Virus record (IMG/VR): IMGVR_UViG_2740892422_000008
Length of the DNA: 7,995 bases
Source: a virus
Lineage: Duplodnaviria; Heunggongvirae; Uroviricota; Caudoviricetes
Direction: 5' to 3' (one strand)
The number at the start of each line of letters is the position of its first letter. Within the stretch, counting starts at the first letter, position 1. The position numbers and the translations under genes were made by a program. Positions 3,056-7,411 of the stretch are shown piece after piece. Under the pieces are notes generated by a model. The model was not told where the DNA came from. It made no database searches and saw nothing but the letters and a program-made list of their open reading frames with translations.

Positions 3056-6000
3056 TCAGATGCTCAGTGCTTCAAGACGACGAAGATCAAAGTCGTTTAA
3101 TTCGTCGGTATAACTTTCGGTAATCGGTGCTGGCCAGTTGTTTGTCTCCAGGGCTTCGTTTATCTGGCGTAGCGTCCGGCGATATTCCTGTCGACCAAGT
3201 TCCAGGAGTTCCTGCGAGGCTTCCACGACTGCCACCCAGTGATAGCCAGCATCTTTGTTGACGAAGATCCAGAAAAATTTGTCCAGATTTGCCACATCGC
3301 AATACATTGCTGCGCTGAGGTGATAATCACGCTCAATAATTTCACGGTGCAGGCGATCTTTCAGTCGTTCCTGTCGCACATAACCGAGGCTGACTGACTT
3401 CACGTCGGCGCAAATGCTTTCGTATGGCAGCCGGATTTCGATATCAGGACGGACCCTGATTTCCAGCCCGGTTTCTTCATCAAACCCGAAATAGCTGATT
3501 TCAGATTTGCGATCCGGGTGGTTGAGTAGCCTTGCTGCATCAGTATTGTTTTGCAGTGCAGCGTGAATATTTTTTGCCTGTTCATACATATCTGAACTGA
3601 TAAACGTTTTCCCGGCGTTTTCTTCTTGCTGGCGTTTTTGCCAGTCCTCCAGGGTAACCAGTTCCGGGCGGATTTTCCGAGCGATTTCGGTTAATTGCTC
3701 TTTCGTGCCACTGATGTTGTAAGGCAAAGATTTAGCACGTTCTTTTTTCGCCAGTTCTGGATCTACAGTTTCAATTTGCTCCAGAAGTTGCTCCCGTGTT
3801 CCACTGGTTTTCAACAGAGGAGGGAGGTTTGCATTGTATTCTCTAATGCAGGCTTTCATTGCCGATGCAGTATGTTTCTCCTCCTCCGGAATACGCCGGA
3901 ATTCCACCGGAAGCGAACCGTAAAGGATGCCTGTTTCTTCGGCTCCAGCACTTACAGACAGTGGCTGTATAAGAGTGCTGTTGTAGCTTTCGATCCACTC
4001 TTTCATCTGCTCTGGTGTCATCAGTGCTGGCAGACTGGCATTGTGTTTTTTAATGATGGCGATCAGTTCGCTAGAAGTAGTAACCACATATTCAGGAACT
4101 GGTACCGGAATGGCATATTCATCAGCGAATTTATCCGTTTCCAGAACATAGCTGTGAATGATCCGCCCACGCAGCAGTGCATCACTTTCCTCGTTCGGAA
4201 TAGTTCCGGCAATGTGCCGTCCGTGGTAATACATCAGGCTGATACGGGCATCCTTCAGCATCGTGCTGCTTATTCCGTTGGCGGAGTGATAAACCTCGTT
4301 CGGGAGGTTTTCATAGCGGCCAGGCTCGAAATATGACGGCCACATGATTTCAGTTGCTACAGGAGCTGACGCTTCACCAGTTTCATCACTGCAATCACGA
4401 TGCGGATCGCTGCCAGCATTCTCATTGTGCGGATGTTCAGCGCCTTCCATTTCCACCGGATCTTTTTCCTTAGCTTCAACCTGATTCTCTTCATCGAATG
4501 TTTCCTGGTATGTTGCGTCGCCCGTCACCGCCCCACAGTCAGGGCAGTTATCTCCGCCAGTCTGACCGCAGGCATTGCAGACTATTTCCGGTTCCTGTTG
4601 CACTACTGGCTCAGGTTGTTTCACATCCGGGCTGGTTTTTTCCGTTTCTGGCTGGTTCTGGTACACAGAATCGCGAGTCTGGATCCCCTTAACCCATTTC
4701 GGATCGTTCGGGTCGCTAATTCCGTCAACAAATTCACCACGTGATGCAGCAAGCAATTTATCGGCATCGACAGGATTTTTTGATGGAATGTTTTTCCGGG
4801 CTTCATGGAGTTCTGCCCGCAGTTCCTGATATTTCGCATCAACAGAATTTACCGGTGACTGAGCATCCAGCGGCTGCGTGTCCTGATGATGTTTAGTTGC
4901 GTCCGGTTCCATTGTTTCAGCCTCTCCCTGTTCATCTGCCGTTGTTCCAGATGGTTGCGGTTTTTCTTCATCATCCTGTTTTCCTTCTTCTGTTACTCGC
5001 TGCGGCATCGGGGCAGAGGAGCGACCGCAGGCAATATCCACGATTTCCGGATCAGGGTTGGCATGATCGGTTTCAGTCAGTACTTTGTTCAGATATTCAG
5101 TGACGTGCGCGGGGGTGACCTCGATCCCAATTGGTGCTTCTTTTACGGACGCAACCACGATGGCGCGGGAATAATCCAGCCCGCCAGGCATGGTGATGAA
5201 TTTGTCGCGGAAAACAGAAAAGGGCGGTTTATTTTCAGCGATAATTTCCTCAATGCGTTTAGCGTGTGCCGGATGAAGGTTATAGATGTCCAGATCCATT
5301 GAACGGGCCAGTACGCCAGTGGCTACGTCGCGCGCCAGTGACGTCAGATCGTGTACGAAACCTTCGCCGCGATCGGTGAGGTTTCCGCCGCCAGCATTAG
5401 CACCGGAAGCCGTGCGAGTGATGTGTGAAACACGATTACCCTTCATCCACTCTTTTGTCAGCAGTCCTCGATCGGTGTAGTCAGCGTTCAGGTATGCTTC
5501 GAAAAAAGCAGTTATCAGTCCCAGGTTTGAATTACCAGGATTAGGGAAAACTTTGTCAGTGTCACGAACCAGTTTGTGGAGTTCGCGAATTTCCAGCGGG
5601 GCGAGCAGGCTGGTTTTGTGGGAAACAGCCAGGGCAGTAACAGCCGGTAGTTCTTCAGCCCGAGCAATGTGTAATGCCTGGAGTCCGTCGCGTGAAACGT
5701 GCGTTACCGGTTTTTCGCTGCCGTGTTGAGCAAGCCAACGAATGGGCAGTTCCTGGCCAGAAATTGGGAGTAGCATATTCTCCTCAATCTCAGTCATGTC
5801 TTCGCCGTTGACGTTGGTATTGCCTTGATAGTGAGCGTTGTCTGGTGCTGCTCCCGGTTTTAGTTCCCATGTCATGGAGTCTTTGCTGAGTTGATAGCGT
5901 TCACTCCAGGTAAAATCGATCTCACCTTCAGCGGGCAGGTCATTAACGACAGGAAAATTCGTGGCAACAGCTTTAAAATAGCTGCTCAGTTTTTTACCTG

Positions 6001-6127
6001 ACTTAACGATCAGGTAGTCCAGAGTGGCACAGGTCGATTCAAAATCGTCACTTGCCCACAGGACGACGTCAGGTTCACCGGATGATTTTTTCGCTTTCCG
6101 TAACAGGAAGAGTGGTTTTGTGCTCAT
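3056..6127 (-). CDS. recE: Exodeoxyribonuclease VIII (RecE-family 5'-3' dsDNA exonuclease), 1023 aa; N-terminal ~585 aa K-12 RecE-like, C-terminal PD-(D/E)XK domain divergent with a repeat insertion
   Basis: ATG at 6125-6127 with GAGGT upstream. N-terminus [26 protein letters not shown]… matches K-12 RecE from memory. The C-terminal domain keeps RecE-type motifs (YH…GIS.S.L.D; IRVRPDIE…ADVK matching the RPD…DVK catalytic core) but is otherwise divergent. Confidence 0.88.
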
Positions 6128-6199: not shown

Positions 6200-6222
6200 T
6201 AGCCTGCGCCATACGCAGGCTA
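6200..6222. other. Perfect 9-bp stem / 5-nt loop hairpin in the racC-recE intergenic spacer
   Basis: TAGCCTGCG ccata CGCAGGCTA. Followed on the plus strand by TTTCTTTC, but not by a U-tract on the minus (gene) strand. Confidence 0.3.
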
Positions 6223-6228
6223 TTTCTT

Positions 6229-6504
6229 TCAGATTTCACCTTTTAATTTCATTGCAATCAGAGTTGCCAGAAATCCGGCTTTTTTTTCTGCGGGCAGATT
6301 CTTTCCGATATGCACCAGGCTCATTTTTTTGACACCTTCGTGAAGTGTTTTAACGTTGCCTGATGGACCGTCGATATCAACTACAGTGAATGGGGTTTCT
6401 TTATTTTCTGTTTTAATCACGTAGCCAATACGCTTTCCTTCCAGATTAACTTCGTGAACAATGTCATCAGTAGTTACAACAGTGGCTTCATAACTGGTAA
6501 TCAT
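6229..6504 (-). CDS. racC: RacC prophage protein, 91 aa
   Basis: MITSYEATVVTTDDIVHEVNLEGKRIGYVIKTENKETPFTVVDIDGPSGNVKTL… matches K-12 RacC from memory. ATG at 6502-6504 is preceded by AAGGAG; the track start at 6552 is an upstream extension. Confidence 0.88.
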   Translation of the reverse strand: MITSYEATVVTTDDIVHEVNLEGKRIGYVIKTENKETPFTVVDIDGPSGNVKTLHEGVKKMSLVHIGKNLPAEKKAGFLATLIAMKLKGEI

Positions 6505-6578
6505 GTTTTTCTCCTTAATTAAGGTTGAGCGAATCCCTGCCATTGCTGGCATAAATTCAGTTTCGCATAGTCAGTTAA

Positions 6579-6749
6579 TTAAAGTTCGTGTGCCATCTGG
6601 TCTTTTTCGGCACATATTTCACTACAATATTTTTTCATTTCCGTCGTTGGGATAACTCCACGCATGAAATGAAGTGGTCTTTTAATGCTTTTGCTTTCTT
6701 TAACTTCTTTATCGCAAAGGTGGTAAGCACATTTTATTTTCTTAGTCAT
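6579..6749 (-). CDS. ydaE: YdaE-like small Cys4 zinc-binding protein, 56 aa (absent from the ORF track, below its size cut-off)
   Basis: Manual translation of the minus strand gives [56 protein letters not shown], stop TAA at 6579-6581. Cys pairs C7/C12 and C42/C46. Its ATG (6747-6749) overlaps the kilR stop as ATGA, indicating translational coupling. Position between kilR and racC matches the Rac gene order. Confidence 0.8.
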   Translation of the reverse strand: MTKKIKCAYHLCDKEVKESKSIKRPLHFMRGVIPTTEMKKYCSEICAEKDQMAHEL

Positions 6750-6970
6750 CACCATGACTCCGCCTTTACAGGTAAACCATCACGACCGAGGAAGACTTTA
6801 ATCATGCAGTCAGTAATGCATGTTTTTGTGGTCAGGTTACGAATATAAAGCTTTCGCTTTTTAATATTGTTTGCCGAGGCAATATATGTCCGGCCTTCAT
6901 GAAGAACATAATCGCCAGGAGTCACACACTGACGTGGTATTTCATCAGTTCCGAAGTGATGTGCAATCAT
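6749..6970 (-). CDS. kilR: KilR, Rac prophage cell-division (FtsZ) inhibitor, 73 aa
   Basis: [73 protein letters not shown] matches K-12 KilR from memory. ATG at 6968-6970 is preceded by GGAG at ~7 nt; the track start at 6982 adds 4 aa without a good RBS. Confidence 0.9.
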
Positions 6971-7141
6971 AATTATCTCCATTTTTACAAATGAACTTTG
7001 TTGATGCGGTGCCTGGTGCCTCCAGGTGACTGCAACCAGTTAACAATTACAGTCGGCTTTCCCACCCAAACCAATAAGGACTAACATGACTTTTAACTGT
7101 GCCACGTGCGCTTAGCCGCATTCACCGCATCACAAAACTCA

Positions 7142-7193
7142 CTTTAAAAAGGGCGGACATCAGCCGAACTTCAAGAAAAAAACTGATGCCGCC
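7142..7193 (-). terminator. Candidate intrinsic terminator on the minus strand, upstream of kilR
   Basis: Inverted repeat GGCGG(a)CATCAG (7152-7163) / CTGATGCCGCC (7183-7193): 11 bp with one bulged base and a 19-nt loop. On the minus-strand transcript it is followed directly by CUUUUUAAAGU (plus 7141-7151). No U-tract follows it on the plus strand. Confidence 0.35.
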
Positions 7194-7411
7194 AGGACTA
7201 CACACAGCAATGTCGTTATTTACAACCGGAGGCGCACTCCCACCATTTAAATTTAACAGACAAGACCGACTCTTTATGGATATCGGAAATGCGCCTTCGT
7301 GTTGTGCCCGGTTTTATTTCACCACCTCCGGGCTTCGGTGGTCTCGGCTATACCCCTACAGCGAGAGCTTGTGTTAACATTTCAATACCCTTACAGTTGA
7401 GAGTTATTGAT

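Follow-up and report, generated by a model that had tools for sequence, protein, structure and literature searches.

The kilR-ydaE gene pair of a Rac-type prophage, its one-base overlap and its natural fusions

The 7,995-nucleotide (nt) stretch of viral DNA analysed here (IMG/VR record IMGVR_UViG_2740892422_000008; hereafter the window) carries on its minus strand two small adjoining genes of a Rac-type prophage. The first, kilR (6749-6970), encodes the FtsZ/MreB inhibitor KilR of 73 amino acids (aa), and the second, ydaE (6579-6749), encodes the 56-aa Cys4 zinc-binding protein YdaE. A preliminary description, made from the sequence alone, had placed two intact open reading frames (ORFs) at 6579-6970, and these limits are exact, as family matches and RefSeq agree. 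Over positions 6200-7300 the window matches the Escherichia coli RM10740 chromosome with 100% identity, within a Rac-type prophage adjoining ttcA whose annotation comprises intR, xisR, ralR, recT, recE, a racC-like gene, a YdaE family protein, kilR, sieB, ydaF, racR, ydaS and ydaT. RefSeq labels the identical RM10740 DNA as kilR and ydaE and does likewise for K-12 MG1655, the pair being already annotated in E. coli K-12, the best-studied strain.

The gene identities proposed in the preliminary description are borne out by profile matches. KilR scores 162.8 bits against NCBIfam NF008465 (cut-off 92), over model positions 1-73 of 73, and matches PHROG 294 with an E-value of 5e-38; its Pfam family is PF27398. 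In a longer kilR ORF that begins at ATG 6982, NF008465 aligns to residues 5-77, and the Shine-Dalgarno-like GGAG found 6 nt before ATG 6970 (6977-6980, minus strand) has no such counterpart at ATG 6982; the 73-aa start is therefore supported over the upstream one. The protein shares 71 of its 73 residues with K-12 KilR, from which it differs by F51C and R55C, and its last 12 residues, at the C-terminus, are unchanged. Toxicity requires this unstructured tail and depends on its length, the identity of the last three residues being unimportant (PMC12482147). Given its 97% identity to the K-12 protein, which was tested experimentally and found toxic, and the unchanged essential tail, the KilR of the window is in all likelihood toxic and would block formation of the FtsZ ring, and the earlier view of kilR as intact is upheld. 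The ratio of nonsynonymous to synonymous polymorphism (pN/pS) of kilR is 0.18. Among the genes of Rac, kilR is the chief cause of death on loss of silencing by Rho. The same holds on loss of silencing by NusG (PMC5793797), and during oxidative stress KilR serves the host as a checkpoint (PMC5793797, PMC12482147). The alignment of KilR proteins is too diverse to yield a search pattern. Public entries widely mis-name KilR homologues "cell division protein FtsZ", as at 2253-2492 of locus L003 (phage phiSTEC1589-Stx1c); these proteins are inhibitors of FtsZ, not FtsZ.

YdaE matches NCBIfam NF041288 (YdaE_coli) over its full length with 86.3 bits (cut-off 35) and also matches PHROG 1520; its Pfam family is PF27493. 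Four cysteines (C7, C12, C42 and C46) show no variation, and the tail YCSxxCAExDQMAHE hardly any. The Cys4 zinc-binding protein of the preliminary description is in keeping with these residues, with the K-12 annotation, which states zinc binding, and with PMC6892955, where YdaE is cited as zinc-binding and listed as a putative zinc chaperone with reference to Blindauer 2002. The literature found gives nothing beyond zinc binding, in agreement with the earlier remark that YdaE has no established function. An AlphaFold2 model (pLDDT, the score of the predicted local distance difference test, 84.7) depicts a small zinc ribbon of two hairpins plus a helix. Foldseek found no significant relative of this model in the PDB, the best matches being ribosomal zinc-ribbon proteins at an E-value of 0.2. 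Nor did any PDB sequence turn up when the YdaE profile was searched against them. The family is tiny, with 33 clusters at E <=0.001 among 1.84 billion representatives, and ydaE DNA is present in 1820 of 5426 complete E. coli genomes, about a third, while kilR DNA is present in 1882 of them. Distant YdaE-domain proteins with larger, unrelated N-terminal regions (P0058 and P0059, 189-190 aa; P0061, 135 aa) suggest that the YdaE zinc ribbon acts as a C-terminal module joined to different partners.

ydaE is a working gene under purifying selection. Across 23 nucleotide alleles pN/pS is 0.37 overall, with values of 0.09 in codons 1-12, 0.14 in codons 41-56, where zinc ligands and the helix at the C-terminus are encoded, and a higher 0.61 for the central part. 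In the window this central part contains a divergent patch of about 90 nt (6621-6710, minus strand) that is 67-80% identical to K-12, between flanks that are 90-100% identical, and the protein as a whole matches K-12 YdaE at 41 of 56 residues. Between the window and K-12 the synonymous divergence (dS) is 0.45 in ydaE and 0.04 in kilR, and the ratio of nonsynonymous to synonymous divergence (dN/dS) is 0.56 in ydaE codons 13-40. Positive selection on the centre was considered and rejected, in view of the pN/pS across alleles, the ratio of 0.56 against K-12 and a dS tenfold that of kilR. The pattern points instead to imported mosaic sequence, probably acquired by a small recombination or gene-conversion event within the 171-nt gene.

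Where the two genes meet, the minus strand reads GCG GAG TCA TGG TGA TGA CTA AGA. Direct reading of the junction TGATGA (6746-6751) places the kilR stop codon TGA at 6751-6749, the ydaE ATG at 6749-6747 and a second in-frame TGA at 6748-6746, a single base being common to the kilR stop and the ydaE start (TGATG). The preliminary description had reported a four-base ATGA overlap, which is incorrect: although the string ATGA is present (6749-6746), its TGA is the second in-frame stop after the true kilR stop, and the overlap is therefore not of the ATGA type. The junction sequence of K-12 MG1655 is identical and is annotated with the same one-base overlap. Among the 87 Rac-type loci from which both genes could be cleanly extracted, all 87 keep the one-base overlap, as TGATG in 53 and as TAATG in 34. 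A Shine-Dalgarno-like GGAG for ydaE (6758-6761, minus strand) lies inside kilR codons 70-71, 8 nt before the ATG, so that the last codons of kilR carry the Shine-Dalgarno sequence of its neighbour; it is kept in all of the Rac-type loci save three, which have GGAA.

Two further in-frame candidates for the ydaE start lie nearby, an ATG at 6753-6755 (minus strand), which gives a 58-aa form (MVMTKK...) with a 7-nt overlap and is used by some database entries (P0001, P0004), and a GTG at 6752-6750. The GGAG at 6761-6758 is spaced 8 nt from ATG 6749 and merely 2 nt from ATG 6755, and YdaE homologues in other lineages start M-x-(K)-IKCAY. Spacing and homologue N-termini therefore favour the annotated start at ATG 6749, and ATG 6755 is probably not the main start of ydaE.

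Overlap of stop and start, together with a ydaE Shine-Dalgarno sequence that lies within the kilR ORF, is the geometry of a coupled pair and renders translational coupling of kilR and ydaE plausible. Coupling alone does not set the KilR:YdaE ratio, which the preliminary description had thought probably fixed. A candidate coupling element is a small RNA hairpin, AGUCAU-GGUG-AUGACU (6744-6759, minus strand), whose 6 base pairs involve the ydaE AUG and the final two bases of its Shine-Dalgarno sequence. The minimum free energy of the hairpin is -7 kcal/mol, with z-scores of -2.6 for the TGA form and -3.2 for the TAA form, and in either form 1 of 200 shuffled sequences was as stable. The whole 131-nt junction region folds no better than shuffled sequence (z -1.08), and only the local 16-nt hairpin stands out. 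In other lineages, too, ydaE stays close to the gene before it: an 11-nt spacer with GGAGG separates HK225-type kil from ydaE in about 45 loci, and in about 40 loci ydaE overlaps an upstream 38-aa ORF by 8 nt.

KilR and YdaE also occur as a single protein. A profile search returned P0055, a protein of 124 aa with KilR as its N-terminal part and YdaE as its C-terminal part, and a follow-up search yielded six fusion clusters at 90% identity, with 56, 21, 20, 207, 3 and 1 member sequences. The fusion proteins have lengths of 124-129 aa and share 56-72% identity with P0055. Both Pfam domains, KilR (PF27398) and YdaE (PF27493), are present in all six clusters, one of which bears the name of Atlantibacter hermannii. 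Where the contigs are long, the fusion is seen to take the place that kilR-ydaE has in Rac, in the order repressor, fusion, recE, recT. The fusions (P0055, P0065-P0069) thus have the same two domains as the window pair, in the same order and in the same position between repressor and recE/recT. Unlike that pair, they form one polypeptide, in which a linker of 10-20 residues replaces the stop/start overlap, and their KilR part resembles the Kil of HK225 or phi80 type more closely than it does the KilR of Rac.

The fusions are of two types that arose independently. One type retains the old GGAGGGAG plus ATG within the ORF, and the fusion junction falls in the C-terminal tail of KilR. In the type represented by P0055, P0065, P0066 and P0067 the two parts are joined via ...KGDP-M.... 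In P0068 the change is from AGC CAT TAA CGGAGGGAGTC ATG to AGC AAT TCT TTA CCG GAG GGA GGA ATG, the former Shine-Dalgarno sequence and ATG now being codons and the old spacer being readable within the ORF. A fused ORF that persists over wide divergence and has arisen twice is a classical sign of two proteins working together. When the AlphaFold2 model of the fusion was compared with the PDB, the best matches were generic SH3-like barrels with E-values above 0.1. Structure offers no functional lead. Inside the fusion ORFs (4163-4258 of L189 and 5163-5252 of L102), immediately ahead of the YdaE domain, a Shine-Dalgarno-like sequence and an ATG in frame have been retained, and both a fusion and a free YdaE might therefore come from one ORF.

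Seen from the KilR side, Rac-type loci have ydaE directly downstream in 78 of 78 cases, and among 184 YdaE loci 128 have a separate KilR gene upstream, five are themselves fusions and two stand at contig ends. The reading favoured here, to which an even chance is given, is that YdaE serves the KilR inhibitor of division and elongation as an accessory module that it can do without, and that ydaE is translated largely by ribosomes coming from kilR. Ribosomes ending kilR would halt at UGA 6751-6749, right on the ydaE AUG and with GGAG 8 nt upstream, and ydaE would most likely be read mainly by ribosomes that had just translated kilR, which would either re-initiate or open up the small hairpin in which the ydaE AUG is otherwise paired. 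YdaE would then be made whenever KilR is, and would act on or beside the functionally critical C-terminal tail of KilR while being dispensable for KilR toxicity. YdaE may contact KilR physically, and it might enhance, temper or redirect its action.

Should YdaE partner KilR in this way, the dose-dependent switch of cells between filamenting and rounding up, as well as what the KilR tail does, would need re-examination with YdaE, and a 56-aa protein known solely for zinc binding gains a function. A tighter relationship is doubtful, namely that KilR and YdaE make up a single functional unit, each as one half, in which the zinc ribbon of YdaE binds or extends the KilR tail and so tunes or redirects KilR. 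Just as tentatively, the properties affected could be, for example, the balance between inhibition of FtsZ and of MreB, stability or release. Were the two proteins such halves, the K-12 KilR phenotypes, all obtained with kilR alone, would describe only half of the natural effector, and the prophages, with the pair fused in some and split in others, would present a natural fusion/fission series of a cytoskeleton inhibitor from phage. The natural fusions raise the standing of the KilR-YdaE hypothesis and make its testing easy; a literature search found no paper in which YdaE was tested together with KilR.

A number of observations weigh against the favoured reading and against an obligate partnership. 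KilR expressed alone from a plasmid, as was done in the study of that protein, is fully toxic (PMC12482147). KilR relatives occur in 150 records of the phage collection and YdaE relatives in 14, and none of the 34 loci with TL-2011c-type (Stx-type) kil has ydaE. Unrelated genes follow kil in phi80, TL-2011c, GZ7 and CobraSix, and a YdaE profile search of these four phages gave no match. In Shigella phage POCJ13 all that comes after an intact, 93%-identical kilR is some 70 nt of decayed ydaE, from which the start and one cysteine codon are gone. Of the 184 YdaE loci, 42 have the unrelated 38-aa ORF upstream, mostly with the 8-nt overlap, and seven have another gene, which is small in the six inspected; at L039, a YdaE that is 100% identical over residues 4-56 stands behind a different gene and has its own AGGAG. 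Downstream, RecE follows YdaE in 179 of 181 testable loci, an association tighter than that of YdaE with KilR, and the two loci without RecE are remnants disrupted by insertion sequences. The hairpin is weak and lineage-specific, being gone in the three GGAA variants and absent from other lineages. Tight packing is frequent in the prophage: of its 14 pairs of neighbouring genes on one strand, 2 overlap and 6 are no more than 11 nt apart; since overlaps and very short gaps are common, the overlap by itself is not unusual. The AlphaFold2 model of the fusion, finally, has two confident domains, but its predicted template modelling score (pTM) is 0.49, and there is hence no confident contact between them. 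The suggestion in the preliminary description that YdaE acts with KilR thus gains from the natural fusions and loses from the toxicity of KilR alone and from the many other phages in which the two genes are uncoupled, a separation that makes YdaE at most an optional accessory.

Many of the same facts would follow if the overlap were ordinary phage compaction, with ydaE starting independently on its own Shine-Dalgarno sequence and serving a function unrelated to KilR. YdaE would then belong with the RecE/RecT module, in the place of gam in Gam/RecT/Exo phages, or would be a free-standing early accessory gene, and the fusions would be tolerated accidents between neighbouring genes. This explanation is tenable, though less probable than the accessory-module reading. 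Besides the RecE linkage, the commonness of overlaps in the window prophage and the occurrence of YdaE behind genes other than kilR, it draws on the strong Shine-Dalgarno sequences that precede ydaE in every lineage, on the 33-nt spacer of HK225, on KilR-family loci with Gam/RecT/Exo or other modules that lack YdaE, and on the position of gam between kil and the recombinase gene in TL-2011c and CobraSix; the lack of a confident interdomain contact in the predicted fusion structure would also be expected. It accounts poorly for fusions that arose at least twice and persist at only 56-72% identity to P0055, and POCJ13 lost ydaE yet keeps recE. Moreover, all sampled YdaE loci come from one broad prophage family, and the linkage of YdaE to recE may therefore reflect shared ancestry, not function. 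If YdaE does belong with RecE/RecT, the matter bears on the biology of RecET recombineering, and if neither partnership holds, what remains is merely a compact and already annotated gene pair.

It is improbable that YdaE is an antidote to KilR, resembling those of type II or type IV toxin-antitoxin systems and made together with KilR in order to neutralise its basal level. Such a role would fit a survey by TraDIS (transposon-directed insertion-site sequencing), in which ydaE was among the genes with few insertions, beside the antitoxin genes higA, hipB and relB, and was "essential only by TraDIS" (PMC5821084). The KilR paper leaves it unknown whether KilR belongs to a toxin-antitoxin system (PMC12482147), and fused toxin-antitoxin proteins exist, CapRel being an example (PMC13423816). 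Obligate pairing, as in toxin-antitoxin systems, fails here, KilR without YdaE and YdaE without KilR both being found; most KilR-family phages lack YdaE, POCJ13 retains an intact kilR after the decay of ydaE, and there is no sign of the gene order usual in such systems, of autoregulation or of a labile antitoxin. Short prophage genes may also be prone to false "essential" calls by TraDIS. The TraDIS paper itself cautions on over-reporting (PMC5821084), and the high-throughput data on ydaE of K-12 conflict, ydaE insertions having been enriched, not depleted, under several chemical stresses in a transposon-sequencing study (PMC5064937). The Keio deletion of ydaE is viable, and is less susceptible to type VI secretion attack by Agrobacterium, with only partial complementation (PMC7012810). 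More remote still is the proposal that YdaE handles zinc, whether in the manner of a metallothionein or as a zinc chaperone, and has nothing to do with the genes beside it. The listing as a putative zinc chaperone in PMC6892955 agrees with it, as does a weak match to the prokaryotic metallothionein family of Pfam (PF02069). That match, at 19.9 bits, falls under the cut-off of 33 bits, and YdaE has only four cysteines and hence one site; membership of the metallothionein family was accordingly rejected. The YdaE family, with its 33 clusters, is also confined almost entirely to prophage and phage contexts, and ydaE is found in merely about a third of E. coli genomes.

The closest known relative of the window pair is that of the cryptic Rac prophage of K-12 (b1352/b4526), which has the same genes in the same order and the same junction; the KilS leader is 100% identical. 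The window differs from K-12 Rac in YdaE, with its imported central patch, and in recE, whose product has 1023 aa in the window vs 866 aa in K-12. KilR resembles lambda Kil, DicB and T7 Gp0.4 in being a small early phage protein that blocks formation of the FtsZ ring (PMC12482147). It has no sequence relationship to lambda Kil or other FtsZ inhibitors; lambda Kil needs ZipA, whereas KilR does not, and KilR also disturbs MreB (PMC12482147). In the literature found, no zinc-finger partner gene is reported for lambda Kil, DicB or T7 Gp0.4. Toxins of the CbtA/CbeA type (type IV), which are encoded by cryptic prophages, likewise hit FtsZ and MreB and have a small co-encoded partner (PMC12482147); KilR-YdaE differs from these in that there is no homology and no sign that YdaE counteracts KilR, and in that KilR often occurs without YdaE. 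YdaE is reminiscent of Rtr1/RPAP2 (PF04181) and of SmtA/GATA-like zinc fingers, having four ligands arranged as CxxxxC (CxxC in some homologues), a spacer and CxxxC. Some databases still label YdaE homologues Rtr1/RPAP2. Assignment to that family was rejected, as the match reaches 32.1 bits over residues 8-54 against a cut-off of 33; unlike Rtr1/RPAP2, YdaE has only 56 aa and is without a phosphatase region.

In the 5' leader of kilR lies the KilS small RNA (7146-7243, minus strand), which forms the upstream part of the kilR transcription unit and is 100% identical over 98 nt to b4833 of K-12, where KilS has been verified by northern blot (PMC8175672). The next gene downstream of ydaE, after a 74-nt gap, is racC (6229-6504, minus strand), and it is followed by recE (3056-6127, minus strand), which encodes exonuclease VIII and is found downstream of ydaE in nearly all loci examined. 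A scan of the minus strand between kilR and racC gave no promoter-like or terminator-like site, and a terminator-like site was also looked for in the ydaE-racC gap itself and none was found. The KilS leader, kilR, ydaE, racC and recE, in that order, are the early leftward operon of the Rac-type prophage. The kil gene of lambda is also an early leftward-operon gene beside recombination genes.

In prophages of the Gifsy type and in many of the Klebsiella/Enterobacter type, the gene before ydaE is the conserved 38-aa ORF (...LAQKGDPDA; 2383-2650 of L004, Gifsy-2; L016; and L110-L187, about 40 loci), and the 8-nt overlap with ydaE has the sequence ATGCATAA. Elsewhere this ORF and YdaE are fused into proteins of 86-100 aa (P0035, P0036, P0043, P0044, P0050, P0052 and P0053). 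The ORF was considered as a possible remnant of KilR, having a PARQQAV stretch and an LAQKGDP end like the LNGKGDP of the fusions; profile-profile comparison by hhalign gave a probability of only 3% over 9 columns, and homology was not shown. The KGDP codons AAAGGAGATCC are the Shine-Dalgarno sequence of ydaE, and the shared KGDP motif may be conserved for that reason. A second small and conserved protein, of 63-78 aa (MNTLFALVLTV...QQCE.AAVEQ.V.G.CYPV), with a hydrophobic N-terminus and two cysteines, is encoded in some prophages after the site of kil and ahead of ydaE, or stands in for kilR (2796-3032 of L039, 2297-2491 of L107, 2770-2988 of L017, and L177 and L185). For P0040 no relatives turned up in viral contigs.

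Elsewhere in the window, the small RNA RalA (Rfam RF02694) was detected on the plus strand at 1557-1735, with 212.7 bits against a gathering score of 170. RalA is the antitoxin RNA of the RalR/RalA type I toxin-antitoxin system, and the match therefore indicates that this system is present in the window prophage too. In related prophages the recE product has anything from about 950 to about 1150 aa; the 5' end of the window gene (5721-6127) is nearly identical to K-12, and the length added relative to the K-12 gene therefore lies deeper in recE.

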